Below the pieces are notes generated by a model. The model did no database searches. It had not been told where the DNA came from and saw only the letters and a program-made list of their open reading frames with translations. The position numbers and the translations under genes were made by a program. From assembly GCA_008932965.1 (NCBI GenBank), contig WBXG01000007.1, forward strand, positions 1 to 32,000: a stretch of DNA of 32,000 bases. Reading direction: 5' to 3'. Source of the stretch: Verrucomicrobiota bacterium. GTDB taxonomy: Bacteria; Verrucomicrobiota; Verrucomicrobiia; Chthoniobacterales; UBA6821. Each line of letters starts with the position of its first letter. Within the stretch, counting starts at the first letter, position 1. This document shows positions 1-31,550 of the stretch, one piece after another.

Positions 1-1
1 G

Positions 2-340
2 AGAATGAAATACCGGAAGGCCCACAAGGGCCGGGTCAAAGGCAAAGCCAAGGCCGGCACTGAGCTGACCAAAGGCGAATTTGGCCTGATGGCTATGGAA
101 AGCGGAAAGATAACGGCGCGCCAGATCGAAGCGGCCCGTATCGCGATGACCCGCCACTGTAAAAGGGGCGGTTTTGTCTGGATTAAGATCTTCCCAGCCA
201 AGCCAATTACCAAGAAACCTGCCGAAACCCGTATGGGTAGCGGAAAAGGTGGTGTTGAGTACTACGTTGCGGTTGTAAAACCGGGCAGAATCCTTTATGA
301 GATGCAGGGCGTGGAGAAAGCTGTTGCTGAAGAGGCTCTG
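2..340 (+). CDS. rplP: 50S ribosomal protein L16 (uL16), internal fragment. The N-terminus runs off the window edge, the C-terminal ~25 residues are absent, and it reads in frame into the next feature.
   Basis: The translation [82 protein letters not shown] matches the conserved uL16 core. Codons are GC3-rich (GCC, GGC, CTG, AAG), unlike the rest of the window. Confidence 0.7.
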
Positions 341-745
341 ACGCTTGCTCAAGAAAATGCACAACGCCATCACATCACAAACATCACCTGGCATCAGGGA
401 AATCTTTTGGAACCACTTTCAAAACAAGGAAGCCCACCCACTTTTGATCTCATTGTTGCTAATTTGCCCTACATTCCAAAAGAAGAAATTCTAACCTTGT
501 CTCGTGAAATAGCACATGACCCTATGATGGCTTTAGATGGGGGTGGCGATGGACTAGATCTTATTATGCGTTTGATTAAAGAGGCGCCTGCTTATCTAAA
601 ACCAGAGGGGTATCTTCTGCTAGAAATTGGAAAAAATCAAGAATGTGAGGTGATGCAACGATTGCAAGAATCCGGTTATCAAAGCATTCATGCCATTGCA
701 GATTATCAGGGAGTATTAAGATTCATTGAAGCAGTGCAACCATGA
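341..745 (+). CDS. prmC: Release-factor glutamine methyltransferase PrmC/HemK, C-terminal ~135 aa only. The SAM-binding N-terminal half is missing.
   Basis: [28 protein letters not shown]...[13 protein letters not shown]...L..E....DP..AL.GG.DGLD....[16 protein letters not shown] matches the HemK motif IV region and C-terminus. AT-rich codon usage resumes here. Confidence 0.65.
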
Positions 746-907
746 GATACTTTTTTAATTTAACACACTATAAATCTATTGAGGCTTGTGCAAAACTCAT
801 GTGCTACAGCTTTGTTCTTAAATTGTGATTGAGGCGGTGAACTCCTACAGACCAGTATCACAATTCCTCATTCTCAATTTCTCATAACTTCGAAATATTT
901 TTTTTTC

Positions 908-2179
908 ATGGATAAAATGATTGTACATGGTGGTCGCACTCTCCAAGGGGAAGTTTTTATTAGCGGCTCAAAAAACTCTGCACTGCCGATTTTAGCGGCA
1001 ACACTCCTCACACGGGATCACTGTATCATTGAGAATGTTCCTGACCTAAGTGACATTCATTACATGCTTACAATTTTAAGCATGCTTGGATGTGAGGTGG
1101 AGAGAGCAAGTGGAGTTGTTCAAGTAAAGGCCTCCCATATAAAAACAGAAGCTCCCTATGAGATCGTACGAAAAATGCGTGCGTCTGTCTGTATTCTTGG
1201 GCCTCTCTTAGGACGGGAGCATGCTGCTACGGTCTCACTTCCAGGAGGGTGTGTTATTGGAGACCGTCCTATCGATTTGCATCTTCGTGGGTTTGAAGAA
1301 CTCGGGGCGACTGTTCAAGTCAAAGGCGGGGACATTCATGTTCTTGCATCCCATCTTCAAGGTGCCACCATTAATCTTCGTGGAAAATATGGACCAACTG
1401 TTTTAGGAACTGGAAATATTATGATGGCAGCAGTCCTTGCTGATGGAATGACTGTTATTGAAGGAGCTGCTGAGGAGCCCGAGGTGATCGACCTTGCTGA
1501 AGTATTAATGAAAATGGGTGCAAAAATTCATGGAGTTGGTACTTCACGAATCGTGATTGAAGGAGTGAAAGAATTACATGGATTTACACACACCGTCATT
1601 CCCGACCGTATCGAAGCAGGAACATTTCTCATTGCGGGAGCTATTGCTGGAAAAAAATTGACGGTGCGTCATATCATTCCAAAACATTTGGATGCCCTGC
1701 TACGTGCACTTCAGGAAGCAGGATTTGATCTTACTTCGAAAAAAGAGAGTATTACGATCACTTCTAATGGTCCTAAAAAACCGTTACACATCGAGACACT
1801 TCCGTTTCCTGGGTTTGCTACTGATCTCCAAGCACAGCTCTGCGCCATGCTCTCTACCATTGAGGGAGTGAGTACCATGACAGAACATATTTTTCCTCAG
1901 CGCTTCATGCATCTTGCAGAATTAAAACGGATGGGCGCTAATATTGAACTTAATGGTGCTACTGCCACGATTATTGGGGTTCATCAACTGAGTGGAGCCC
2001 CTGTTATGGCTAGTGACTTGCGTGCTTCTGCTGCGCTTGTGCTAGCAGCACTTGCTGCCGATGGTCCCACTGAAATTAGCCGAGTTTACCACATCGATCG
2101 TGGCTATGAAGGAATAGACAAAAAACTCAATAAGCTGGGTGCTCGTATTGAAAGGGTTAGCCCGGATATTTCATTTTGA
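908..2179 (+). CDS. murA: UDP-N-acetylglucosamine 1-carboxyvinyltransferase
   Basis: Full-length match to the MurA pattern: MDK..V.GG..LQGEV.ISGSKNSALPILAA.LL, KMRAS..ILGPLL, and the active-site LPGGCVIGDRPIDLH with Cys retained. The last 7 codons and the stop lie in a repeat-element end. Confidence 0.95.
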   Translation: MDKMIVHGGRTLQGEVFISGSKNSALPILAATLLTRDHCIIENVPDLSDIHYMLTILSMLGCEVERASGVVQVKASHIKTEAPYEIVRKMRASVCILGPLLGREHAATVSLPGGCVIGDRPIDLHLRGFEELGATVQVKGGDIHVLASHLQGATINLRGKYGPTVLGTGNIMMAAVLADGMTVIEGAAEEPEVIDLAEVLMKMGAKIHGVGTSRIVIEGVKELHGFTHTVIPDRIEAGTFLIAGAIAGKKLTVRHIIPKHLDALLRALQEAGFDLTSKKESITITSNGPKKPLHIETLPFPGFATDLQAQLCAMLSTIEGVSTMTEHIFPQRFMHLAELKRMGANIELNGATATIIGVHQLSGAPVMASDLRASAALVLAALAADGPTEISRVYHIDRGYEGIDKKLNKLGARIERVSPDISF

Positions 2180-2207: not shown

Positions 2208-3257
2208 CTATTCTAACTCAAAATTGATATTGACCGTATAAGCACTATTAGAACCAATTCCACGAGGCAATGGGGCAATTTTTAGGACCTTTTGAGCAGC
2301 TGACAAAACCGAGGCATCCATCACAGGATTTCCGCTTGGCTTAGAAAGGGCAAAATGAGAAATGGTCCCATCTGATTGAATTGTTAATTGCAGAGTGCAA
2401 ACAAAATCATGCTTATGTTCTGTTGGAATTGCAGTCGGTTGTTCCCATTGACTATAAAATCGATCATGAATGAGTTCATGATAGGCACCTAGTGCTCCAT
2501 TATCGACACCAGTCCCATTTCCCTCTCCATGCGTTCCGGAGGCTCCAGCCCCTCCATTTTTACTTTCAAGAAAAGCTGATTTTGTTGATGAGTCAGCATG
2601 ATTGCTGCTATTGATATTTTTACTATGACCCTCTTTTTTTTCATGAGAGGTCGATTCCTTGGATTTAGGAGAGGATGTGGAGTGAGATATTTTTTCCTTA
2701 GCCTCACTTTGAGAAGTAGCTTTTAAAGCTGGCTTGGGAGTCAGTTTTGGAATTGGCTTTGGAGTTGGCTTGGGAGTCAGTTTTGGAATTGGCTTTGGAG
2801 TTGGCTTGGGAGTCAGTTTTGGAATTGGCTTGGGAGTTGGCTTCGGAGTTGGCTTCGGAGTTGGCTTCGTAGTTACATCAGCCAGTGGTATCTCAGATTT
2901 ATTTTCTAATGGAGGAGGTGTACCCTCTTCCACAGGATCTTCTTTAGGATCTTCTGTAGGAGTGACTGGTGCATCTAATTTGGAATCAGGAGAAGAAGGT
3001 GTGGCAACAGGGGCTTCCTGTTCTTCCTCCTTAGTAGTAGGTACAGATTGCTCTTTTTCAGCAGTAGCCGGAGCAGGTGCTGGAATTCCTAATGTGGGAG
3101 ATGCTGAGCCAAAAGATCCTGTATCAAGCCATGTTACCTGTTCGAGAGGTGGTTTCACAGGTTGCCTCATAAAATAGATGATACTTAAAATAAGTACTCC
3201 ATGAATAGAGGCGACAATAATAAGTGCTCTTCGGAAATCCGGCCGAATATTTTTCAT
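2208..3257 (-). CDS. TonB/TolA-family energy-transducer protein
   Basis: It has an N-terminal TM helix ([19 protein letters not shown]), a long Pro/Lys/Thr-rich spacer with TPKP repeats, and a C-terminal TonB_C-like domain ([16 protein letters not shown]...[32 protein letters not shown]). The start overlaps the upstream exbD-like stop (ATGA). Confidence 0.8.
2731..2874. repeat. Tandem repeat inside the TonB-like CDS: three 36-bp units followed by three 12-bp units
   Basis: The unit ggcttgggagtcagttttggaattggctttggagtt occurs at 2731, 2767 and 2803. It is followed by ggcttcggagtt x2 and ggcttcgtagtt. On the minus strand this encodes [12 protein letters not shown] reiterations. Confidence 0.9.
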
Positions 3258-7159: not shown

Positions 7160-9340
7160 CTATGCATAATGCGAGCTAGAATTTTTTTTCTTGAAATAAA
7201 AATCATGTATCCAACAAATGATTCGCTGGATAAGGAATATCCCAGCACGTTCCAATTCAGATTTTTGCTGCCACTGATAAGCTCGCACTGGAATTGTTTC
7301 TTCTATGAGTTTTTTCCAAAATTTTAGAGTTGCTTCTTGAGTAAAAGCTTGTCCCGATCGGTGGCCATTTTGAACAAGCATAGCACGCAAACTTGGGTTT
7401 TCTTGAAGTTGTTTGAGTTGTTTAAAAACTTCTTTAAGTGATGTAGCCACGAGATAATCTATCTCAGGATTCCCATCAGCAGCATAAGCAGAATCGGATC
7501 CTCCAATAAAGGGAACTCCTGCTAACCAAGCATTATAGAGCTTTGTAGCAGGCTTATTCATATGCAAAGAGCGAGAGAAGCTGCGAATAGCAATCACACA
7601 GTCAACATCAGTATAATTATTCCACTCATGATATCCTCGTATTTGAAAATGAAGTCCAAGCTCTTCATATAGCCTGCGATGCCATTTTTGAGAACGAAGC
7701 TCCGGGGCAAGGTTTTGTATTTCCCCAAAGAAGCAGACATTTTCAAAGCGTGTTCCTCGAGTTGGATCACGTGGTTTTAGAAAAGGTTGAGGCCAGTGAG
7801 GAACATAAATGGAATTTGGAAGATAACGGGTATAATTTCTATTTTCCACTAAATGCAAATCCACACTAGGATGCGGTGTTTTATCAGCAAGAATATCGAC
7901 TAGAAATAAATGTGGATTTATAGATTTTCGTCTGAGTAACGGGTTTAAAAGCTTGCTCATCGTAATACAAATTCCAGTATTTTTTTCAAAAGGAAACTCG
8001 GTGGAAAGAGTAGAGTTGACTCCAATTTTCTTAAGCAAACTCCATGTTTGATAAATCCAACATGTAATTGTAGGGCTTTTGATTGGTTGATTTAATGCCA
8101 TTGGGTCTCCTTCTTTCCATTTTTCTCCCCAATCATCAGCAGAAAGAAAATATTCCATGATATGAAATGAAATCTTATCAAGAAACTTGATGGGAATCTG
8201 TTTCTCCATTTTTTTCTGGAAATAGTTGGTATAATACCGAAGAAAAAAAGTAGATAAGGAAGGGACCTTTGCATGAATGCTTGCACACGTTGCAAATAAG
8301 ATGGAGGCACGTTTTAAAGCGTTCGCTGATGCTTTCCAGTACCAAGAAAGGAGTGGATGTTCCGGCTTTTTTTCTTGAGCCTCTAAAGAATAAAAAGTGG
8401 CATCTATACTATTTTCGAGGGAAAATGCTGCCTTTCTCCAATATTCTGCTAACCGCTTATCTATTGTTAAAGCCTCACTTGCAGATGTGCGGTAGAAAAT
8501 AATTTTTTTATACACCTTTACCTGAGGAGGTAACTGATTATCTTCAAATTCTAATTTCTCTGCTTTGCAGGTCAGTTTCTTCCAGAGGTCATCGACAGCA
8601 TTCAAAGCTGCTAAAGCAGCTAGTGAATACTCAATAGCCTGATCTTCGTTGCCGATTTGAGTGGCCATTGCGGCTTCGATCCGTAACGCTAGAGCATTCT
8701 GATTTAATTCGAGAAGCTCATTCCAGAGGTGTTTATAGGGTGCTATTTTCTCTGGTGAAATGGATGCAGTATGAATATGGATATTGGCAAGATGAGCTGC
8801 CGCATATGCTGCTTTTACCCAACGATGGGTTAACACTATATTCAAAAAAGCATCATGGTTGTTAAGCGCTTGTGCTTTTTTAAATAAGGAAACTGCCTTG
8901 ATAGCATAACGAGAGGCTTCAGGAAGAGTCGACTCATAGTGGATTGCTGCCTGCGATACTTCTTGTATTTCTTGATCAAAATCTTTTGAGGCTTGTGCCT
9001 GCGCAAAAGCTAACCAATAACGGTACGCCGAGCCTGCTTCCCTATTTTCATTCCTATGGAAGGCCCAATAGGAGATTTCTGATTTTTGAAGCTTGTGATC
9101 CAAATAGTAATTGCCTTCTTGGTTCCAATAGGTCAAAAACGCAATCGCATCAATACTATGGGTTCGTTGAGGTTTGAGTAGCGCAGTTGCAGTTCTTTGT
9201 TGATCTACGAATGCGGCCTCATCGCTTGCAAGCCTCCAATATGCAGCAAGTCTCTCGTTTCCGAAAGCAGAAGCCCTGAGAGCTTGCTCACGATAGAGAG
9301 CAATTTCATCTCTTGCTTCTCTCTGAATTGAAAAATCCAT
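7160..9340 (-). CDS. Hypothetical two-domain protein: N-terminal alpha-helical repeat region (~390 aa) plus a C-terminal GT-B-like putative glycosyltransferase domain
   Basis: The N-terminal part carries recurring xYW(R/K)xA helical motifs (AAYWRLAS, YRYWLAFA, AEYWRKAA, SWYWKASA). The C-terminal ~340 aa is clearly paralogous to the next gene (CWIYQTW, FLVDI.AD..PHP...LHLV.NR, PHW.QP.L.PRDP.RG, NLAPELRS, KPATKLYNAWLAGVPFIGG.DSAYAADG). Confidence 0.6.
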   Translation of the reverse strand: MDFSIQREARDEIALYREQALRASAFGNERLAAYWRLASDEAAFVDQQRTATALLKPQRTHSIDAIAFLTYWNQEGNYYLDHKLQKSEISYWAFHRNENREAGSAYRYWLAFAQAQASKDFDQEIQEVSQAAIHYESTLPEASRYAIKAVSLFKKAQALNNHDAFLNIVLTHRWVKAAYAAAHLANIHIHTASISPEKIAPYKHLWNELLELNQNALALRIEAAMATQIGNEDQAIEYSLAALAALNAVDDLWKKLTCKAEKLEFEDNQLPPQVKVYKKIIFYRTSASEALTIDKRLAEYWRKAAFSLENSIDATFYSLEAQEKKPEHPLLSWYWKASANALKRASILFATCASIHAKVPSLSTFFLRYYTNYFQKKMEKQIPIKFLDKISFHIMEYFLSADDWGEKWKEGDPMALNQPIKSPTITCWIYQTWSLLKKIGVNSTLSTEFPFEKNTGICITMSKLLNPLLRRKSINPHLFLVDILADKTPHPSVDLHLVENRNYTRYLPNSIYVPHWPQPFLKPRDPTRGTRFENVCFFGEIQNLAPELRSQKWHRRLYEELGLHFQIRGYHEWNNYTDVDCVIAIRSFSRSLHMNKPATKLYNAWLAGVPFIGGSDSAYAADGNPEIDYLVATSLKEVFKQLKQLQENPSLRAMLVQNGHRSGQAFTQEATLKFWKKLIEETIPVRAYQWQQKSELERAGIFLIQRIICWIHDFYFKKKNSSSHYA

Positions 9341-9362: not shown

Positions 9363-10376
9363 CTACCGTGTTACACGATCGAAATAACAAGAAAAGTGTT
9401 GCATGAGGTGCAAACAGGAATGTTCCAATGAGGATCGTTGCTTCCACTTGAGAGCTTCTGCAGGAAGCGTTGTTTGAACTAATTTCTTCCAACGATCGAG
9501 CGTTGCTTCCCTTGTATAGGAAACCACTGATTCCGATCCCTTCTGGACTAATTTCCAACGCATTACTGGATCTTCCTTGAGTTTTTTTAAATATTGAAAA
9601 ACTTTTTCAGCAGAGGTTCCTACAAGATAATCTTCTCCAGGATGACCATCAGCAGCATAGGCAGAATCGATTCCTCCAATGAAGGGAACACCAGCAAGCC
9701 AGGCATTATAAAGTTTGGTTGCTGGTTTATGAAGGTGCCTTGAGCCAGAAAAGTCACGAATTGCAATTACTCCATCGACATCGCTGTAATCATGCCAACG
9801 TCGTGCTTCTCTGATTTCTAGCAAAATACCAAGTTCTCTATGAAGTTGTTCTTGCCATGCTGCAGATCGTAGCTCCGGTGCAAGATTGCTACTGTCACCA
9901 AAAAAAGAGATTTTTTCAAAAAGAGAGCCACGTGCTGGGTCACGTGGAATCAGATGAGGTTGTGTCCAATGTGGCATAAAAAGGGAGCGCGGTAATTGTC
10001 TAGCATGAGCTCTGTTTTGAACAAGATGAAGATGCGCTGCAGGATGGGGCAACCCATCAGCAACAATATCGACAAGAAAGTAATTGTGAGAAATCCACTT
10101 TTTACCATTTTTTTTAAACTCCTCTTTGAAACAAGATACTATAGATGGAAAAGAGCTACTCATAGCGATGATAATACCCCCTTCATGAGGGAGGCTACCG
10201 AGAAGTGAACATGGAATCTTTTCCTGGATGAGCAAAGCCCATGTTTGATAGATCCAGCATTGAGCTGTGGCCCCTTTCCCTTTTTCTTCGAGTGGAATAA
10301 TCTGATTTTTTTCTAAGGCTTCTATCCAGAATTGGTTTGGAAAATGTTCTTTGGGCAAGATAAATGAGATAGGCAT
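9363..10376 (-). CDS. Hypothetical GT-B-like putative glycosyltransferase, stand-alone paralog of the C-terminal domain of 7160..9340
   Basis: By eye it has more than 50% identity to the C-terminal domain of the neighbouring 726-aa protein. HKPATKLYNAWLAGVPFIGGIDSAYAADG resembles the nucleotide-sugar-binding half of GT-B enzymes. It lies next to GT4 and acetyltransferase genes. Confidence 0.6.
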   Translation of the reverse strand: MPISFILPKEHFPNQFWIEALEKNQIIPLEEKGKGATAQCWIYQTWALLIQEKIPCSLLGSLPHEGGIIIAMSSSFPSIVSCFKEEFKKNGKKWISHNYFLVDIVADGLPHPAAHLHLVQNRAHARQLPRSLFMPHWTQPHLIPRDPARGSLFEKISFFGDSSNLAPELRSAAWQEQLHRELGILLEIREARRWHDYSDVDGVIAIRDFSGSRHLHKPATKLYNAWLAGVPFIGGIDSAYAADGHPGEDYLVGTSAEKVFQYLKKLKEDPVMRWKLVQKGSESVVSYTREATLDRWKKLVQTTLPAEALKWKQRSSLEHSCLHLMQHFSCYFDRVTR

Positions 10377-10397: not shown

Positions 10398-10450
10398 CTA
10401 GCCCGCATATTTCATACCGATCGTAAGGAATAGCAGGTGCAAGTTGAACT
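10398..10450. repeat. Solo or truncated terminus of the TIR element family
   Basis: CTAGCCCGCATATTTCATACCGATCGT matches the family terminus. The rest has diverged. It lies 22 nt upstream of the start codon at 10376. Confidence 0.55.
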
Positions 10451-12144: not shown

Positions 12145-13280
12145 AGCGAGTATTGCATGTCATCGATCATCTTCAATTGGGTGGAGCTCAATCTTTATTG
12201 TTAGATTTAGTAACCTTAATGGAAAAATCAGAATGGCACTGTGAAGTTGCTTCCATGCATGGACGTGGTCTTTTTGCAGAACTCTTAGAAAAAAAAGGAA
12301 TCTCAGTCCATTCCCTCTCTCCCTCCTTATGGCCACCGTGTTATCTTGCTGCATTTGCAAGCCTCCAATCTCAATTTGATATTCTTCATTTTCATCTTTC
12401 GGGTTCCAATTGGATTGCCAAACCCATGGCAGCTCTCCTTGGAAATCAACCCCGGATATCACATGATCATGGGAGTGATGATTTTCGTTTTCGTGGTAGG
12501 GGATTTGTTTTAATGGATGCCATCATGCATCGCTTTTCAACACACACGATTGCCGTCACACCGGAGGTAAAACAATTTTTAACCCATTATGAAGCTCTTA
12601 CTGCGGAGTCAGTCACAGCGATCTCAAACGGAATCAACGTGGAAGAATTCCGTCCTTTTACTTCAGAAGAAAAAAAAGAAGCCCGTCTGTTTTTTGATTT
12701 GCCCTCGGAAGCATTTGTGGTGGGCACGGTAGGCCGTCTTGCGCCTGAAAAAAACCAAACACTTTTCTTGAAAGCCGCTAAAATTGCTCTCGAGCAAGGA
12801 TTGAAAGCTACTTTTCTAATTGCAGGGACAGGCCCCGAAGAAGCAGCTTTAAAAAAATGTGCTGCACAACTTGGCATCGAACATAGTGTTCGCTTTTTAG
12901 GACAGATTAAAGATCGCGTCCAGCTCTACCGTTCATTAGATCTATTTGTACTAACCTCACGCTTTGAAGGTTTGCCAATGGTACTTTTAGAGGCCATGGC
13001 TTCAGGAATACCAGTTGTAAGCACCGATCTTGAGGGAATTCATCATGCACTTGAGGGAGGACGACATGGTCTCTTGATTCCCTCGGAGGATGAGATAGCT
13101 TTAAGTGACTGCTTGCTGCACTCCCATGAACGAATCCAACAAGAATCTTTGCGAAGTGCACGTCTTAAAGTAGAATCAGATTTTAGCGCTCAGAAAGCTG
13201 CTAAGAAGTTAGGGGATTTATATCAGTCACTTCTGAGCCCGAATATTTCACACCGATTACCTATGGAAGCCGGAAAGTAA
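12141..13280 (+). CDS. Glycosyltransferase family 4 (GT1/GT4 RfaB-like)
   Basis: LQLGGAQSLLLDLV, VGRLAPEKNQ and SRFEGLPMVLLEAMASGIPVVSTD motifs. The last 15 codons and the stop (from 13234) are encoded by a repeat element. Confidence 0.9.
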   Translation: MKRVLHVIDHLQLGGAQSLLLDLVTLMEKSEWHCEVASMHGRGLFAELLEKKGISVHSLSPSLWPPCYLAAFASLQSQFDILHFHLSGSNWIAKPMAALLGNQPRISHDHGSDDFRFRGRGFVLMDAIMHRFSTHTIAVTPEVKQFLTHYEALTAESVTAISNGINVEEFRPFTSEEKKEARLFFDLPSEAFVVGTVGRLAPEKNQTLFLKAAKIALEQGLKATFLIAGTGPEEAALKKCAAQLGIEHSVRFLGQIKDRVQLYRSLDLFVLTSRFEGLPMVLLEAMASGIPVVSTDLEGIHHALEGGRHGLLIPSEDEIALSDCLLHSHERIQQESLRSARLKVESDFSAQKAAKKLGDLYQSLLSPNISHRLPMEAGK

Positions 13281-13511
13281 GTGTGGACGCTTTATTGAGC
13301 TCGAAGTCTTCCTTGGGCGGTAGGTATTCATACAGCCCTGCATCAAAATGCTTGCCTGCGTTGACTCACTCGCTCCCACTCGTTTCCCCCTTTTAGGGCT
13401 TCCTAAGAGGCTCCTAAGAGACAGTCTCCCCCGCGGTCTCCAGACCACCGGTGGTGCCCTATCAGTCTTCGCGACCTCCTCTTTACGATCAGTATGAAAT
13501 ATGCGGGCTGG
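13234..13511 (+). mobile_element. TIR element, long form (278 bp), with a nested ~96-nt hairpin module at 13361..13456
   Basis: The left end is TGAGCCCGAATATTTCACACCGATTACC and the right end is CGATCAGTATGAAATATGCGGGCTGG. The core TACAGCCCTGCATCAAAATGCTTGCCTGC is followed by a TTGACTCACTCGCTCCC... module. Confidence 0.85.
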
Positions 13512-13616
13512 GAGAATTTAATCTTCATTTTCTTTTTTTTACTGTTTCTTTTTTAGTAAAAGGACCCATGCTCAAGTTTGTTTGTTTTGGTCTTTTAATG
13601 TTTAATTTTTTGAAAA

Positions 13617-16219: not shown

Positions 16220-16250
16220 TATCTACTTGAAACCCTAGCAGAACTGCATG

Positions 16251-16345
16251 TTAACCCGAATATTTCATACTGATCGTGACGAGGAGGTCGCGAAGCCAGA
16301 TGTGTGATACTGTAGACTCTTATTTTGAGTTGGGCCGTCTTATCA
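16251..16345 (-). repeat. Truncated TIR element: one arm plus a diverged core, reverse orientation, other end missing
   Basis: TTAACCCGAATATTTCATACTGATCGTGACGAGGAGGTCGCGAAGCC is the reverse complement of the right-arm consensus. TATTTTGAGTTGGGCCGT matches the reversed CATCAAAATG core. Confidence 0.75.
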
Positions 16346-17611: not shown

Positions 17612-17623
17612 TTTTAGCTCGGA

Positions 17624-17660
17624 TATTTCATCCTGATCTATTATGAAGCCTTCTCGTTTC
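17624..17660 (+). repeat. Solo left terminus of the TIR element family
   Basis: TTAGCTCGGATATTTCATCCTGATCTATTATGAAGCC aligns to the left arm of the copy at 28118 (TTAACCCGAATATTTCATCCTGATCTACTACGGAAGAC). Confidence 0.65.
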
Positions 17661-23815: not shown

Positions 23816-23910
23816 AAAAGAGCAAGAAGCCTCTTCTATCTTTTTAGTGCGCGCATTATTGAGTTTTTATGCTCTTAAGAAATTCAGAAAGCTGTTAGTT
23901 TAGCAGAATA

Positions 23911-23975
23911 TTAACCCGGATATTTTATACTGATCGCGGCCTTCGCTGGTGATCAGAATGAAATATGCGGGTTAA
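23911..23975 (+). mobile_element. Miniature (65 bp) deletion derivative of the TIR element, essentially the two arms only
   Basis: TTAACCCGGATATTTTATACTGATCGCGG-CCTTCGC-TGGTGATCAGAATGAAATATGCGGGTTAA. TTAA is present at both ends and the sequence folds as a near-perfect hairpin. Confidence 0.85.
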
Positions 23976-24005
23976 CCACATTATCCTACAGAATTTTTCA
24001 CACTT

Positions 24006-24545: not shown

Positions 24546-24587
24546 AGCCGTAGTAGTAGTAGATTTAGTATGAAATATTTGGGCTAG
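24546..24587 (-). repeat. Solo left-arm terminus (reverse orientation), abutting the next copy and sharing its CTAG
   Basis: AGCCGTAGTAGTAGTAGATTTAGTATGAAATATTTGGGCTAG duplicates the end of the adjacent copy (CTTCCGTAGTAGATTGGTATGAAATATTTGGGCTAG at 24732..24767). Confidence 0.7.
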
Positions 24588-24767
24588 CCCAAATATTTCA
24601 TACTGATCGTGACGAGGAAGCTGCGAAGGGTGATGGGGCAAGGCAGTCGAGCATTTTGATGCTGGGCTGTATGAACACATACCGCCCAAGTCAAAATGGG
24701 AGTCTAACGCAGCATCCATCTGACTTCCCAGCTTCCGTAGTAGATTGGTATGAAATATTTGGGCTAG
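24584..24767 (-). mobile_element. TIR element, standard form (184 bp), reverse orientation, CTAG at both ends
   Basis: Its reverse complement aligns end to end with the copies at 28118 and 25500, including the core TACAGCCCAGCATCAAAATGCTCGACTGCC. Confidence 0.9.
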
Positions 24768-24771
24768 GATC

Positions 24772-25486: not shown

Positions 25487-25499
25487 TTACAGCTTCTTG

Positions 25500-25705
25500 T
25501 TAACCCGGATATTTCATTCCGATCACCTGCGGAAGCCGGGAAGCTAGGGTTGATGCTGCGTTGGTCTCGAATTGTGATTCGGGAGGTAGGGACTCTACAG
25601 CCCTGCATCAAAATGCTCGCCTGCGTTGACTCGCTCGCTCCCACGCGGTCTCCCATCAGCCTTCGCAGCCTCCTCATCACGATCAGTATGAAATATCCAG
25701 GTTAA
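25500..25705 (+). mobile_element. TIR element (206 bp), reference copy, carrying a 27-nt remnant of the nested module (25626..25652)
   Basis: TTAACCCGGATATTTCATTCCGATC...GATCAGTATGAAATATCCAGGTTAA. Internal hairpin CTCGAAT-tgtg-ATTCGGG (25566..25583). Core CTACAGCCCTGCATCAAAATGCTCGCCTGC. Confidence 0.9.
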
Positions 25706-25992
25706 AAAATTTGCTCCAATGCTGCTGTAAGCAAATATCCCTGGAGTTTTTCTACGTAGAGTTCTCCTTCTTCACGAGAGCCGGACCAAAGAGTAGAGCG
25801 TCCTTGTACGTGTACTTCGCGCATTTTTTTTTCTGCAATTTCTTTGCTAAATCCAAAGATCTTTTGAAATACCATAGTCACATAACTCATTAGATTAATA
25901 GGATCATCATGGACAACGACCTGCCAGACTGGCTCCAGTTCTAGTTCCATGACTGTTTCAGGATTTTCTAAAATGAGTGGTTCCGTTGTCAT
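25702..25992 (-). CDS. clpS: ATP-dependent Clp protease adaptor ClpS
   Basis: VWQVVVHDDPINLMSYVTMVFQKIFGFS.E.A...M.EVH..G......GSREE.E.YV..L. The stop TAA lies inside the element's terminal TTAA (25702..25705). The start overlaps the ybeY stop. Confidence 0.92.
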   Translation of the reverse strand: MTTEPLILENPETVMELELEPVWQVVVHDDPINLMSYVTMVFQKIFGFSKEIAEKKMREVHVQGRSTLWSGSREEGELYVEKLQGYLLTAALEQIF

Positions 25993-27244: not shown

Positions 27245-27319
27245 AGTTATCCCCATCCGTATTGAAAAGTAAAACTAGTTTGGCTGCCTTGCATAGATTT
27301 GAACTATGACAAGCAGATT
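27245..27319. repeat. Direct repeat copy 1 (75 bp): 36 nt of tRNA-Gln trailer plus tRNA-Gln nt 37-76
   Basis: 74/75 identical to 27419..27493, with the single mismatch at 27279/27453. It contains the T-arm, the 3' acceptor strand and CCA of tRNA-Gln but no 5' half. Confidence 0.95.
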
Positions 27320-27418
27320 GACTCGCTCGCTCTCGCTCGTCTCGCCCCTTTGGGGTTGCTTTATCAAAGCAATCTACCCCGCGGCTTTGCAGCCGCCGGT
27401 GTTCAGTCTGAATCTGCT
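27320..27418 (+). repeat. 99-nt insert between the tRNA-Gln direct repeats, a copy of the nested hairpin module
   Basis: (TT)GACTCGCTCGCTCTCGCTCGTCTCGCCCCTTTGGGG-TTGCTTTatcAAAGCAA-TCTACCCC-GCGGCTttgcAGCCGC-CGGTG aligns with modules at 13361, 28505 (reverse), 28618 and 30005. It ends with TCTGAATCTGCT, an inverted 12-nt copy of the tRNA anticodon loop and 3' stem. Confidence 0.85.
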
Positions 27419-27493
27419 AGTTATCCCCATCCGTATTGAAAAGTAAAACTAGCTTGGCTGCCTTGCATAGATTTGAACTATGACAAGCAGATT
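27419..27493. repeat. Direct repeat copy 2 (75 bp), part of the intact tRNA-Gln locus
   Basis: See copy 1. The repeat boundary at 27493/27494 falls between the anticodon's third base and nucleotide 37. Confidence 0.95.
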
Positions 27494-27528
27494 CAGAGTC
27501 TGCTGTGCTACCGTTACACCACAAGGCA
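27455..27528 (-). tRNA. tRNA-Gln (anticodon CTG), 74 nt with encoded CCA
   Basis: Hand-folded cloverleaf: acceptor TGCCTTG/CAAGGCA (U1:A72, as in bacterial tRNA-Gln), D arm GTGT-AACGGTA-GCAC, anticodon arm GCAGA-CTCTGAA-TCTGC, 4-nt variable loop, T arm CATAG-TTCAAAT-CTATG, discriminator G, CCA. Confidence 0.88.
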
Positions 27529-28063: not shown

Positions 28064-28117
28064 GAATTAAATTTAATAAAAGAGGGGGTTATGAAAATTT
28101 CTTATTATAAAATGGCT

Positions 28118-28302
28118 TTAACCCGAATATTTCATCCTGATCTACTACGGAAGACGGGAAGCAAGGGTGGATGCTGCGTTAGGCTCCCATTTTGACTTGG
28201 ACAGTACCTACTCATACAGTCCTGCATCAAAATACGTGTCTGCCTTGCCCCATCAGCCTTCGCAGCTTCCTCGTCACGACTAGTATGAAATATTCGGTTT
28301 AA
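28118..28302 (+). mobile_element. TIR element, standard form (185 bp), TTAA at both ends
   Basis: TTAACCCGAATATTTCATCCTGATC...GACTAGTATGAAATATTCGGTTTAA. Core TACAGTCCTGCATCAAAATACGTGTCTGCC. No nested module. Confidence 0.9.
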
Positions 28303-28411
28303 GAAATATCGTGGCGATTCAAGTTTCGAATCAGGCAATAACACTAAGCTAGTTTTCACATTGGTCAAGTAGTGTCTGATCTCAATGAAAGCAGATGGAT
28401 CTATTTATGGG

Positions 28412-28765
28412 TTAACCCGCCTACTTCATACCGATTCTGCTGCAGCTTGCGAACACCTGATAGATACTGCGTCAGTCTCGAATTGCTCCTCGGGCAGTAT
28501 GACTACCGGCAGCGGGGAAGCTGCGGGAGAGATTGTCGCAAAGCGACAACCCGAAGGGCGAGACGAGCGAGAGCGAGCGAGTCAAACTACAGCCGTCGTC
28601 GCAATCCATCACCTTCGTTGACTCGCTCGCTCCCGTTCGTCTCGCCCTTTCAGGGCTGCCCCCTAAAGCCAGGGCAGTCTCCACCACGGTCTCCCGACCG
28701 CAGGTGGTTTCTGTATCAGGATTCGAGGCGCCTTGCGACGAACCAGTATGAAATATGCGGGTTAA
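28412..28765 (+). mobile_element. TIR element, composite form (354 bp), with two nested hairpin modules in inverted orientation (28505..28585 reverse, 28618..28707 forward)
   Basis: TTAACCCGCCTACTTCATACCGATTC...AACCAGTATGAAATATGCGGGTTAA. The left arm is nearly identical to the copy at 31368. Internal 30-nt inverted repeat GGGCGAGACGAGCGAGAGCGAGCGAGTCAA / TTGACTCGCTCGCTCCCGTTCGTCTCGCCC with a 32-nt spacer. Confidence 0.9.
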
Positions 28766-28824
28766 TTGAGGATGGACTATCAAGGAGAGCGCAGAAGTGG
28801 TAGCAATGATAACAATTATAGAAG

Positions 28825-29989: not shown

Positions 29990-30154
29990 CCACCATCGCC
30001 TTCTTTGACTCGCGCGATCCAGCTCGTTTCTTTTTTAAGGGCTTACTAACCTAACAACTGAGTTAGTAATCGCTCTGGTGGTCTTCCTGTCACGTCTGGT
30101 TTCTATACCAGGCCGCTTACCTTATAACATTTCAGTGTGAAATATCTGTGCTAG
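29990..30154 (+). repeat. Degenerate right portion of a composite TIR element (module plus right arm, no left arm)
   Basis: CCACCATCGCCTTCTTTGACTCGCGCG...TTTCTATACCAGG...CAGTGTGAAATATCTGTGCTAG parallels 28600..28765 of the composite copy. Contains the stem TTACTAAC/GTTAGTAA (30043..30069). Confidence 0.7.
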
Positions 30155-31215
30155 GCTATGGTTACCTCTTTGCAGAGATAGACATCTTGAATGGACTGAA
30201 TCAATTGAATTCCTTCAGCCATGGGGCGCTGAAAGGCTTTGCGTCCGCAGATAAGGCCTGTTCCTCCTGCACGTTTATTGATCACAGCTGTTTTAACAGC
30301 ATCAGCAAAATCGTGTTCGCCCGAAGCTCCTCCACTGTTGATAAGCCCAGCACGTCCCATGTAACAGTTGGCTACTTGATAGCGGCACAAGTCAATAGGA
30401 TGGTCTGAAGTAAGTTCAGTATATATGCGTTCATCGAGCTTTCCATAGCTGGAGTTACCTGTATTAAGAGCCTTGTAGCCGCCATTGTTCTCAGGAAGTT
30501 TTTGTTTGATGATATCTGCTTCGATGGTGACTCCGAGATGATTAGCTTGGCCAGTTAAGTCGGCCGAAACGTGATAATCCTTGTCTTTTTTGAATGCCGG
30601 ATTACGCAAGTAGCACCAGAGGACAGTAGCCATTCCAAGCTCATGAGCATGATGAAAGACCTCTGCAACCTCAACAATTTCTTTGTCGGCATCTTCAGAA
30701 CCAAAATAGATCGTGGCTCCGACTGCAGCTGCTCCCATGTCGTAGGCCTCTTCAACAGTACCAAACATAATTTCTTGATGTTTATTGGGGTAGGTGAGCA
30801 ATTCGTTGTGGTTAAGTTTTACGAGAAAAGGAATATGATGAGCATATTTACGAGCAACCATTCCAAGCACACCACAAGTAGAGGCAACGGCACTGCATCC
30901 TGCCTCAATAGCCAATCGTACAATGTTTTCAGGGTCAAAATAGATCGGATTTTTTGCAAAGCTAGCACCTGCAGAGTGCTCTACTCCTTGATCAACCGGG
31001 AGTATGGAAAGATAGCCTGTTCCACCAAGGCGGCCATGAGCATACATCCGCTGTAGATTGCCCAAAGTACGTAGATTACGATCAGAATGAGAAAAAATAC
31101 GGTCTACAAAATCAGGCCCGGGTAAATTCAAAAGCTCTTTTGCAATGGTCATCGACTTGTGCGTGAGAAGTGAGTCTGCTTCTGATCCGAGATATTGTTG
31201 AATAGTAGAAATCAT
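30151..31215 (-). CDS. fbaB: Class I fructose-bisphosphate aldolase (FbaB/DhnA type)
   Basis: ~354 aa. [19 protein letters not shown], the ADIIKQKLP Schiff-base lysine region and INSGGASG, typical of the E. coli FbaB family. The stop TAG lies within the CTAG terminus of the degenerate element (30151..30154). Confidence 0.88.
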
Positions 31216-31367
31216 AAAAAGAGTATTTAGAAGTTTGGTAATTTTTAGCTACTTGGTCCAATGAGTTTGGAATATCCTAGCGAAGTAAGTATTTAAATTA
31301 GTAGCATTAGCGGAAGTGTACAATTTCAAAATTGGAAAAAAGGAAATAAGGGTCAGGCTAACCCGCC

Positions 31368-31541
31368 CATTTCATACCGATTCTGCTGCGGCTTGCGAAC
31401 ACCTGATGGATACTGCGTCAGCTTCGAATTGCTCCTCGGGCAGTAGGGACTCATACAGCCCTACATCAAAATGCTCGCCTGCCTCACCCCATCAGCCCCC
31501 GCGGCCTCCTCGTCACGATCAGTATGAAATATCCGGGTTAA
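31368..31541 (+). mobile_element. TIR element, standard form (174 bp)
   Basis: CTAACCCGCCCATTTCATACCGATTC...GATCAGTATGAAATATCCGGGTTAA. Stem GTAGGG/CCCTAC around CTCATACAG. Core CATCAAAATGCTCGCCTGCC. Confidence 0.9.
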
Positions 31542-31550
31542 AAGTTCTGT

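Follow-up and report, generated by a model that had tools for sequence, protein, structure and literature searches.

Is the short repeat that recurs in this stretch of DNA a unit of its own, and if so, of what kind? The stretch, called the window below, covers 32,000 nucleotides (nt), positions 1 to 32,000 of contig WBXG01000007.1 (assembly GCA_008932965.1) from a Verrucomicrobiota bacterium of the Chthoniobacterales. It holds several copies of a repeat module of about 80-95 nt with three hairpins. An earlier note, made from the letters alone, had described the module as an independent unit whose stems covary between copies. We found that the module is dispersed, nests, forms arrays and keeps its stems by compensatory changes on fixed loops and linkers. 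Our verdict is that the family is a structured interspersed repeat of the REP/BOX/bcr1 kind, outside any named family.

The consensus module begins with a 5' segment, TTGAC-TCGCTCGCTCCCGCTCG-TCTC(G). This is followed by hairpin 1 (GCCC-TNC-GGGC), hairpin 2 (a free 5-8 bp stem), the linker GTCTNCCCC, hairpin 3 (a TCCC loop on a free 6-bp stem) and, at the 3' end, CGGTG(N)T. Pairing was evaluated in two alignments. The first was a structure-blind MAFFT alignment of 73 copies, made from sequence only. In this alignment, 87% of pair cells were standard pairs, compared to 28-45% when the partners were slid by 1-3 columns, and 250 cells carried a double change, compared to 79 +/- 8 after shuffling; none of the 500 shuffles reached 250. 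The second alignment was made with a covariance model (CM) and contained 132 hits, 124 of them distinct. Among the distinct copies, 91% of pair cells were Watson-Crick or G-U (35-47% in the slid controls) and 442 cells were doubly changed (126 in shuffles, with none of 500 reaching the actual values). Covariation was seen in 17 of the 17 modelled pairs, many with four or five pair types, and the covariation score was 0.50, compared to no more than 0.07 with slid partners. These 124 copies contain about 38 different uninterrupted hairpin 2 stems and about 40 hairpin 3 stems. Copies with a single compensatory difference, GCATTG/CAATGC versus GCATCG/CGATGC, occur within one genome. Both alignments therefore bear out the proposal that pairing is preserved while sequence changes. 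The note had named as its refutation a lack of covariation, with stems explained by subfamily ancestry; the data contradict this. Such ancestry cannot account for the compensatory pairs, since the slid controls retain the relatedness of the copies yet lose the pairing.

The 5' segment is variable in a similar way. In a 3'-anchored sample, 23 of 48 copies had the canonical non-pairing CTCGCTCCCGCTCG and 12 of 48 had a true hairpin (hairpin 0) with a TCCC or TCCA loop on six different stems; in longer related families, the TCGCTCCCGCTC motif lies in the loop of a stem that differs between families. The unit is therefore best described as three or four hairpins that display fixed single-stranded motifs on free stems. 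A reading of hairpin 2 loops as UNCG tetraloops was wrong, and they fold as triloops on 5-bp stems.

We lean toward the structure being read at the DNA level, probably as a single strand, over a strand-specific RNA, and do not regard this as settled. The DNA-level reading is favored because G-U and A-C cells are equally frequent among the paired cells (51 each, with the sign of the difference varying between helices) and because of the loops. In hairpin 1 and in short versions of hairpin 2, a C-G pair closes a TNC triloop; the opposite strand there reads C(GNA)G, with all four bases at N. The loops of hairpin 3 and hairpin 0 read GGGA on that G-rich strand. The C(GNA)G motif is known from DNA mini-hairpins of unusual stability. 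When four intact copies were folded with DNA parameters, the G-rich strand was the more stable one in all four, by 2-3 kcal/mol.

Within the window, the CM (built from copies in other genomes, with every window position scored and filters off) returned exactly the five copies that had been described and the remnant, with the next best match only at E=1 (Table 1). The 5' motif pattern TTGACTCRCTCGCTCNNNNTCGT, with up to 3 mismatches, matched six times in the window and not once in each of 100 shuffles. Three of the copies are intact, with folding z-scores of -1.8 to -3.6, and two are degenerate. The 13361 copy (z-score -0.4) retains an intact 5' motif and intact hairpins 1 and 3, and a tandem TCCTAAGAG duplication stands in place of hairpin 2, as the earlier note had said. 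The 30005 copy (z-score +0.2) has two mismatches in the 5' motif, an intact hairpin 2 (TTACTAAC/GTTAGTAA) and broken hairpins 1 and 3. In the remnant, the 5' motif TTGACTCGCTCGCTCCCAC is fused to GCGGTCTCC. The stems listed previously were confirmed: besides that of the 30005 copy, these are TTGCTTT/AAAGCAA (27356-27372), TTGTCGC/GCGACAA and CTGCCC/GGGCAG for hairpin 2, and GCGGCT/AGCCGC, GCAGC/GCTGC and CGGTC/GACCG for hairpin 3. Some details needed correction. The 5' motif has a spacer of 4 nt in every copy rather than 2-4 nt, and the 27318 copy, thought to extend to 27418, ends at 27403, with CAGTCTGAATCTGCT lying outside the module.

Four module copies and the remnant are nested in a larger element. 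This larger element is about 190 nt long and resembles a miniature inverted-repeat transposable element (MITE), with inverted ends of about 27 nt (TTAACCCGGATATTTCATnCTGATC). It occupies many intergenic spaces of the window, folds as a long hairpin (z = -5.5 for the copy at 28117-28304), has at least two subfamilies and is also present in other low-GC Chthoniobacterales metagenome-assembled genomes (MAGs). The nested position of the 13361 copy was read from an alignment with empty copies of the larger element, and the remnant occupies that same site in a further larger-element copy. Comparison with the empty copy at 31356-31543 places the minus-strand copy at 28502-28585 at a site that differs from the others. 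The idea that the module enters the larger element at different sites thus clearly holds for this copy, and not for the 13361 and 28618 copies, whose sites in two subfamilies are homologous. At 28618, the larger element and its module form a composite that has multiplied in related genomes, with identical flanks at many Tobar2m-G38 loci.

The module is not restricted to this organism. Module-bearing loci (L-numbers below) were collected from genomes, metagenomes and viral contigs. An exact-pattern scan of one genome per species found the module in at least 99 genome stretches with a GC content of 40-67%, nearly all from Verrucomicrobiota MAGs; the hosts were labelled Chthoniobacterales, Terrimicrobiaceae, Spartobacteria and Chthoniobacter, with one Limisphaerales among the matches listed. 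In the low-GC hosts Tobar2m-G38, Kiruna_bin-02438 and Deming_bin.170, the window's larger element is present as well. Together with the orthology of L018 to the tRNA locus described below, this places the window in a low-GC freshwater member of the Chthoniobacterales. A metagenome scan anchored on the 3' half only (GTCTNCCCCG-N5-TCCC-N6-CGGTG) matched at least 114 stretches, some of which belong to longer related families, and both soil and freshwater metagenomes hold the module. Four viral contigs contain seven module copies between phage-type genes. One module contig (L046) was binned as Limnocylindria. Another (L054), binned as Burkholderiales, holds the composite of the low-GC Chthoniobacterales (GC 0.43), has the same flanks as the Tobar2m-G38 copies and is probably mis-binned.

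Two related longer families were also seen, one in L107, L110, L121, L127 and about 45 more metagenome loci and the other in L109, L113, L116 and others. With the module they share the TTGACTC start, the TCGCTCCCGCTC motif, the GTCTACCCCG linker, the TTCCCA-loop hairpin and CGGTGTT, after which they have an extra GCCC-TCGC-GGGC hairpin. They have a GC content of 52-58% and are abundant in metagenome contigs.

The module had been held to be no named family, and this held up: canonical, low-GC and soil variants matched no family in Rfam 15 at gathering or permissive thresholds. The gathering hits were tRNA only, and permissive thresholds added chance miRNA and snoRNA matches far under gathering scores. 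In the searchable literature, a module sequence string matched only an unrelated primer, and searches on Chthoniobacter and Verrucomicrobia repeats returned general REP papers and no description of the module. The family is large, spread through Verrucomicrobia genomes and some of their phages and, as far as could be found, undescribed.

Evidence for mobility comes from filled and empty sites. Copies of two larger-element subfamilies occur with and without the module, with flank identities of 95-98% and about 88-94%. At the first, the empty site reads CACCTTCCTT^GTCTGCATC and the filled site CACCTTCGTT[GACTC...CCGGTGGT]GTCTGCATC. At the second, they read GTCTGCCTT^ACCCCATC and GTCTGCGTT[GACTC...GGTGGT]ACCCCATC. 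These two clean junctions are ..CCTT^GTCTGC and ..CCTT^ACCCC, and no target duplication longer than 2 nt was seen at the filled/empty pairs. Five resolved sites have the targets CCTT^, CCTT^, GATT^, GAGT^ and GACT^, with no specificity beyond ..T(T)^. The near-identical filled and empty copies, together with module copies in high-GC genomes that lack the larger element, substantiate the claim that the module is independent of the larger element. The absence of terminal inverted repeats, also claimed, is true of the window copies; some subfamilies elsewhere end in at most 5 nt of inverted repeat (TTGAC/GTCAA). The comparison of L076 with L048 and L084 as a filled/empty pair was dropped, since these are paralogous protein repeats instead.

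One module lies inside hairpin 2 of another in L017, where L099 has it uninterrupted, and a module of L035 has the larger element inserted in its hairpin 2. Together with the filled larger elements, the L035 case shows nesting in both directions between the module and the larger element. In high-GC genomes, the module also forms perfect head-to-tail arrays, with three 87-nt units in L042, units repeating every 94 nt in L071 and 174-nt fused units in L080. A CRISPR-like or integron attC-like identity was rejected: no spacers separate the units of the arrays, and the module does not form one long imperfect palindrome. Heptamer or nonamer tandem repeats (CACCATT, CTGACTTT, CAGTCAATC) were observed directly beside many modules in high-GC genomes, and to judge from these sequences the module often appears to have inserted after the ..TT of such a tract. 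In L007, the composite (module at 414-496) lies in frame in a gene for a PBP1A-type transglycosylase/transpeptidase (1-1626, minus strand), where it adds about 100 residues missing from the L013 homologue. By crude gene calls, all four classes of orientation to genes are occupied (26, 16, 14 and 13), and the downstream gene is co-oriented in 45 cases and opposed in 43.

Two inverted module pairs were also noted, at 4820-5905 of L041 and 2363-3290 of L106. Their 5' ends point inward and bracket 0.92 and 0.76 kb of unrelated DNA, respectively, which is lower in GC in L106. The open reading frames (ORFs) in the bracketed DNA had no Pfam match. The pairs may represent cargo capture by two modules.

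The one intact copy outside the larger element lies at a tRNA locus, 51 nt downstream of and antisense to the tRNA-Gln(CUG) gene. Here the module is flanked by two 75-nt direct repeats with 99% identity and a spacing of 174, which were found only at this locus. On the plus strand, the left side runs from the spacer through the 3' half of the tRNA to AGCAGATT, the module (GACTC...GGTGTT) and CAGTCTGAATCTGCT; on the right side, the spacer and tRNA 3' half to AGCAGATT are followed by the remaining tRNA from CAGAGTCTGCT. The junction after AGCAGATT on the left falls within the anticodon loop of this tRNA, two bases in. CAGTCTGAATCTGCT and the AGCAGATT left of the module make up an 8-11 bp inverted repeat that brackets the module. 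L018 is orthologous to this locus (84% identity) and has the same junctions and the same 15 nt, with only about 45 nt duplicated, compared to 75 nt in the window. The window lineage probably extended or homogenized the repeat later. The tRNA-fragment/module junction is also the same in L045. We infer that the module entered the anticodon-loop sequence of an ancestral partial tRNA-Gln duplicate. Other modules lie just downstream of tRNA-Gln once in L011 and twice in L175, without a duplicated tRNA fragment. The tRNA-Gln association comprises about four independent cases and may be due to chance.

We see an even chance that the module is a non-coding, non-autonomous mobile DNA repeat of Verrucomicrobiota, mainly Chthoniobacterales, that is moved by an enzyme acting in trans. 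Its mode of movement is what we infer from the features above. Selection would then act on the module being recognized and copied by the enzyme supplied in trans. This enzyme would read the single-stranded TCCC/GGGA loops, the CTCGCTCCCGCTCG motif and the GTCT-CCCC linker on hairpins of any sequence. The enzyme would most likely recognize the module as folded single-stranded DNA, more probably on its G-rich strand, much as HUH/Y1 enzymes handle REP sequences and IS200/IS605 ends. New copies would enter unpaired DNA after T or TT. The ..T(T) with which the module ends would be a target of this kind, and reinsertion there could produce the tandem arrays.

Several observations weigh against this reading. 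The first is that no enzyme could be linked to the module in the flanks of about 100 loci or by tblastn of the loci. All-against-all BLAST of the ORFs of these loci returned only ABC transporters, orthologous neighbors and translated repeats as recurrent flanking proteins; the neighbors are ordinary housekeeping genes, with no recurring transposase. For tblastn, IS608 TnpA and E. coli RAYT were used as queries on 1.3 Mb of loci, in which no full-length insertion sequence (IS) sharing the module ends was seen. An IS200-like tnpA in L011, 5 kb from a module, is low in GC and has flanks unlike the module. L091 ends in a RayT-like gene (HUH motif HYH, then YIHLNP) that is about 1 kb from a module and is not flanked by modules, and five contigs with its closest homologues have no module within 3 kb. 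Such homologues are common, and several are named 'REP element-mobilizing transposase RayT' by JGI. A Y1/RayT partner is thus unsupported, since the tnpA and RayT-like genes examined do not have module flanks.

Other points concern the structure, the junctions and the orientation of the module. The equal G-U and A-C counts could just mean neutral decay after insertion. At both clean filled/empty comparisons, the third base before the junction is C in the empty site and G in the filled site, and the exact module ends are uncertain by 1-3 nt. By the same crude gene calls, there is a mild excess of co-oriented over opposed upstream genes (55 versus 35), and the modules in the tRNA arrays of L175 and L126 are co-oriented with the tRNAs and hence would be transcribed. 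Finally, at 64 of 97 genome loci of 8 kb (p=0.002), the C-rich strand is the one that holds the module's top strand, independent of gene orientation (coding-strand skew about 0, r=-0.01). This bias would fit single-strand transposition, but it was not replicated in metagenome contigs (26:31). We excluded it from the evidence because it was significant in one data set and absent in the other.

Two side observations belong to these loci. In L091, two direct repeats, AACAGCCGAAGG(A/G)GTC(C/A)GTCC(T/C)ATAA, lie at 7500-7616, just upstream of the RayT-like Y1 gene, which adjoins an Rhs-type toxin region; they may be that RayT's own REP-like sequences. The tRNA arrays are on metagenome contigs (22 tRNA genes at 6186-9581 of L175 and 8 at 31-1220 of L126), and modules and another conserved spacer of about 90 nt, all co-oriented, sit between the tRNAs.

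A bolder account, which we regard as possible and hold only tentatively, is that the module belongs to a new class of structure-guided mobile DNA that has no inverted ends, target duplication or gene of its own and is shared with phages. A folded single strand would serve as the template for copying, its G-rich side displaying the C(GNA)G and GGGA loops, and the module would insert into unpaired or loop DNA. The tRNA anticodon loop, the hairpin 2 loop of another copy and the heptamer-repeat tracts would be examples of such targets. The enzyme would be one not yet tied to transposition in Verrucomicrobia.

Another possible explanation, which we consider unlikely, is that the module is a functional structured RNA and that its spread is secondary. 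It could act in cis as an mRNA stabilizer or processing site, or as a Rho entry site through its C-rich unstructured 5' segment and hairpins, or in trans as a protein sponge through the GGGA and GNA loops of the bottom strand. Strong covariation along with conserved loops and linkers is what real RNA families have, and the GGGA loops of hairpins 3 and 0 on the bottom strand are GNRA-type tetraloops. The co-orientation of the tRNA-array copies and of upstream genes also fits. However, G-U does not exceed A-C overall, all four orientations to genes are found, copies are nested in repeats, within coding regions and in perfect tandem arrays, and Rfam has no match. Nor were promoter or terminator features read from the sequence. 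No T-run follows any hairpin, and only 55 of 90 upstream genes point the same way as the module, which does not suggest an intrinsic terminator. As for the TTGACT start, a promoter reading was rejected, as no -10 hexamer could be read at the correct spacing.

The module could also be an ordinary MITE, cut and pasted by a DDE transposase at the short ends TTGAC...GTCAA, with incidental hairpins; we consider this quite improbable. Many copies of one subfamily do end in ..GTGGTCAA, a 5-nt inverted repeat with the TTGAC start, and the L041 and L106 pairs around 0.9 and 0.76 kb are composite-transposon-like. The window copies and most subfamilies, however, lack the GTCAA end, and the 3' end at the filled/empty site is GGTGGT. 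Moreover, no target duplication was seen, the DNA bracketed in L041 and L106 has no Pfam transposase, and incidental hairpins would not covary at every pair.

The tRNA-Gln locus raises the question of whether a tyrosine integrase moves a miniature integrative element that carries the module as cargo, there and perhaps generally, with the duplicated tRNA 3' half as the attachment-site repeat. The 75-nt direct repeat holding the 3' 39 nt of tRNA-Gln, the recurrence of the junction in L018 and L045, and the copies downstream of tRNA-Gln in L011 and L175 are what such an element would leave. We nevertheless judge this very improbable. All other well-resolved insertions lack flanking direct repeats, and L011 and L175 lack the duplicated fragment. 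The junction (AGCAGATT^CAG) is in the anticodon loop and not at the usual T-arm or 3'-end crossover, and the inverted anticodon-arm copy makes the locus resemble an insertion into a partial tRNA duplicate.

Finally, the notion that there is no structural selection and that each subfamily inherited its own palindromes has almost no chance of being right: many copies do come from a few recently expanded subfamilies, such as the larger-element composite, but with slid partners only 35-47% of cells pair instead of 91%, and the covariation score falls to 0.07 or less, the roughly 40 different stems per hairpin are each self-complementary, and copy pairs can differ by nothing more than a compensatory double change.

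Table 1. Positions of the module, the larger element, the tRNA-Gln locus and tandem tracts beside modules (window coordinates unless a locus is named).
Feature	Position	Strand	Score or support	Remarks
Module copy	13361-13455	+	CM 66.8 bits, E=1.8e-17	in larger-element copy 13234-13513; hairpin 2 lost
Remnant	25626-25652	+	CM 20 bits, E=2e-4	interior deleted; in larger-element copy 25499-25707
Intact module	27318-27403	+	CM 87.1 bits; DNA fold	outside larger element
5' motif of 27318 copy	27318-27344
Hairpin 1 of 27318 copy	27345-27355
Hairpin 2 of 27318 copy	27356-27372
Linker of 27318 copy				TCTACC
Hairpin 3 and outer pairs of 27318 copy	27379-27399
Tail of 27318 copy				GTGTT
Intact module	28502-28585	-	CM 90.9 bits	inside larger-element copy 28410-28767
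Intact module	28618-28708	+	CM 83.5 bits	long hairpin 2; in the same larger-element copy, 28410-28767
Decayed module	30005-30100	+	CM 27.6 bits, E=1.5e-6; fold z-score +0.19
tRNA-Gln(CUG) gene	27455-27528	-	ARAGORN; Rfam tRNA 64 bits
Left 75-nt direct repeat	27245-27319	+		36 nt of tRNA-downstream spacer and 3' 39 nt of tRNA-Gln; ends ...AGCAGATT
Right 75-nt direct repeat	27419-27493	+		runs on into the intact tRNA-Gln gene
Inverted tRNA-Gln anticodon-arm segment	27404-27418	+		CAGTCTGAATCTGCT, reverse complement of AGCAGATTCAGA(C)TG
Larger-element copy	13234-13513
Larger-element copy	23910-23977
Larger-element copy	24585-24769	-
Larger-element copy	25499-25707
Larger-element copy	28117-28304
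Larger-element copy	28410-28767
Larger-element copy	31356-31543
Larger-element partial end	2156-2186
Larger-element partial end	10399-10449
Larger-element partial end	16250-16307
Larger-element partial end	17612-17643
Larger-element partial end	30130-30156
Short tandem tract beside module	L042 6487-6530
Short tandem tract beside module	L001 7075-7110
Short tandem tract beside module	L023 6675-6700
Short tandem tract beside module	L021
Short tandem tract beside module	L032

The rest of the window is ordinary chromosome, with genes for polyphosphate kinase, glycosyltransferases, ClpS, YbeY, a GNAT acetyltransferase, a beta-lactamase-fold protein and a DeoC aldolase. Pfam searches found no transposase or integrase among these neighbors. 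The polyphosphate kinase was also found in a JGI metagenome and in a Logan assembly. Two further repeats were seen. A 12-nt/36-nt tandem repeat (TTTGGAGTTGGC...) at 2686-2889, within the ORF at 2208-3257 (minus strand), probably encodes a repetitive low-complexity protein stretch. The 240-nt stretches at 7385-7624 and 9558-9797 are 71% identical and represent a paralogous segment common to the adjoining ORFs at 7160-9340 and 9363-10376 (both minus strand).

Some members of the Chthoniobacterales group are among the most abundant bacteria of soils and lakes, and to our knowledge the repeat content of the group is essentially undescribed. Since the module recurs in intergenic DNA over a GC range of 40-67%, nests with other repeats, enters genes in frame and sits in phages, it is a driver and marker of genome plasticity. 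Assembly breaks and mis-binning are further likely consequences, as with the copy in the contig binned as Burkholderiales. Fixed loops on free stems offer a clean substrate for finding the protein that reads them, which could be a new structure-specific nuclease or recombinase. The CM from this analysis can be used to annotate the family directly.

How does the module compare with known systems? No named family was assigned because the defining tests fail for REP, MITE and any Rfam family. REPs are single imperfect palindromes of 20-40 bp with a GTAG (or CGTC) head that occur as singlets, inverted pairs and clusters, sometimes in genes (PMC3733652), and compensatory changes preserve the hairpins of REPINs (PMC3116915). 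Like REP, REPIN and BIME sequences (RAYT, Y1 HUH), the module is short, non-coding and mostly intergenic, with tens to hundreds of copies and compensated hairpins, and it has fixed unpaired 'tag' nucleotides beside free stems. Unlike REPs, it consists of three or four distinct hairpins in fixed order, with a 27-nt non-palindromic head and no GTAG; a CGTC is present 2 nt before hairpin 1, where the stem is 4 bp rather than 8-9 bp. Head-to-tail arrays are rare for REPs, and in contrast to the REPtron, a RAYT gene flanked by repeats, the RayT-like genes examined have no flanking modules.

The PATEs derived from IS200/IS605 also lack terminal inverted repeats and a target duplication; they have subterminal hairpins and a short T-rich target, and as with the module, recognition as folded single strands is likely. 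PATEs would be expected to insert 3' of a conserved 4-5 nt target, in an orientation set by the lagging-strand template; the module's target is no more specific than ..T(T)^ at five sites, and its strand bias was 64:33 in one data set and 26:31 in the other. In the 1.3 Mb of loci, no full-length IS with the same ends was found for the module, and the flanks of the single IS200-like tnpA (L011) are unrelated. The MITEs Correia/NEMIS and RUP are similar to the module in size, copy number and intergenic location and can sit in genes in frame. Such classical MITEs have terminal inverted repeats of 20-30 bp and fixed target duplications. The larger element belongs to that kind, but the module does not, as it lacks terminal inverted repeats of at least about 10 bp. 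An integrative element at a tRNA gene would have direct repeats of the tRNA 3' end around every insertion, and the module has them only in the window and at the orthologous L018 locus.

The SDRs of filamentous cyanobacteria, which Elhai and colleagues are said to have described in 2008, reportedly are 21-27 nt long, nest in MITE-like elements and in each other, and have conserved secondary structure. By this description, they are similar to the module in nesting and structure and differ in their length and cyanobacterial host. The last comparison is with the BOX elements of Streptococcus pneumoniae (PMC3049150) and with bcr1 of the Bacillus cereus group. The module has no sequence similarity to these repeats, occurs in another phylum and lacks a duplication or long inverted ends. 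BOX and bcr1 are modular structured interspersed repeats of about 100-150 nt with stable predicted folds, for which compensatory changes have been reported; bcr1 makes a TTTAT duplication, and BOX ends are inverted-repeat-like. We know of no dedicated transposase for either. Like BOX and bcr1, the module is a structured interspersed repeat of modular build, in which internal units can be repeated.

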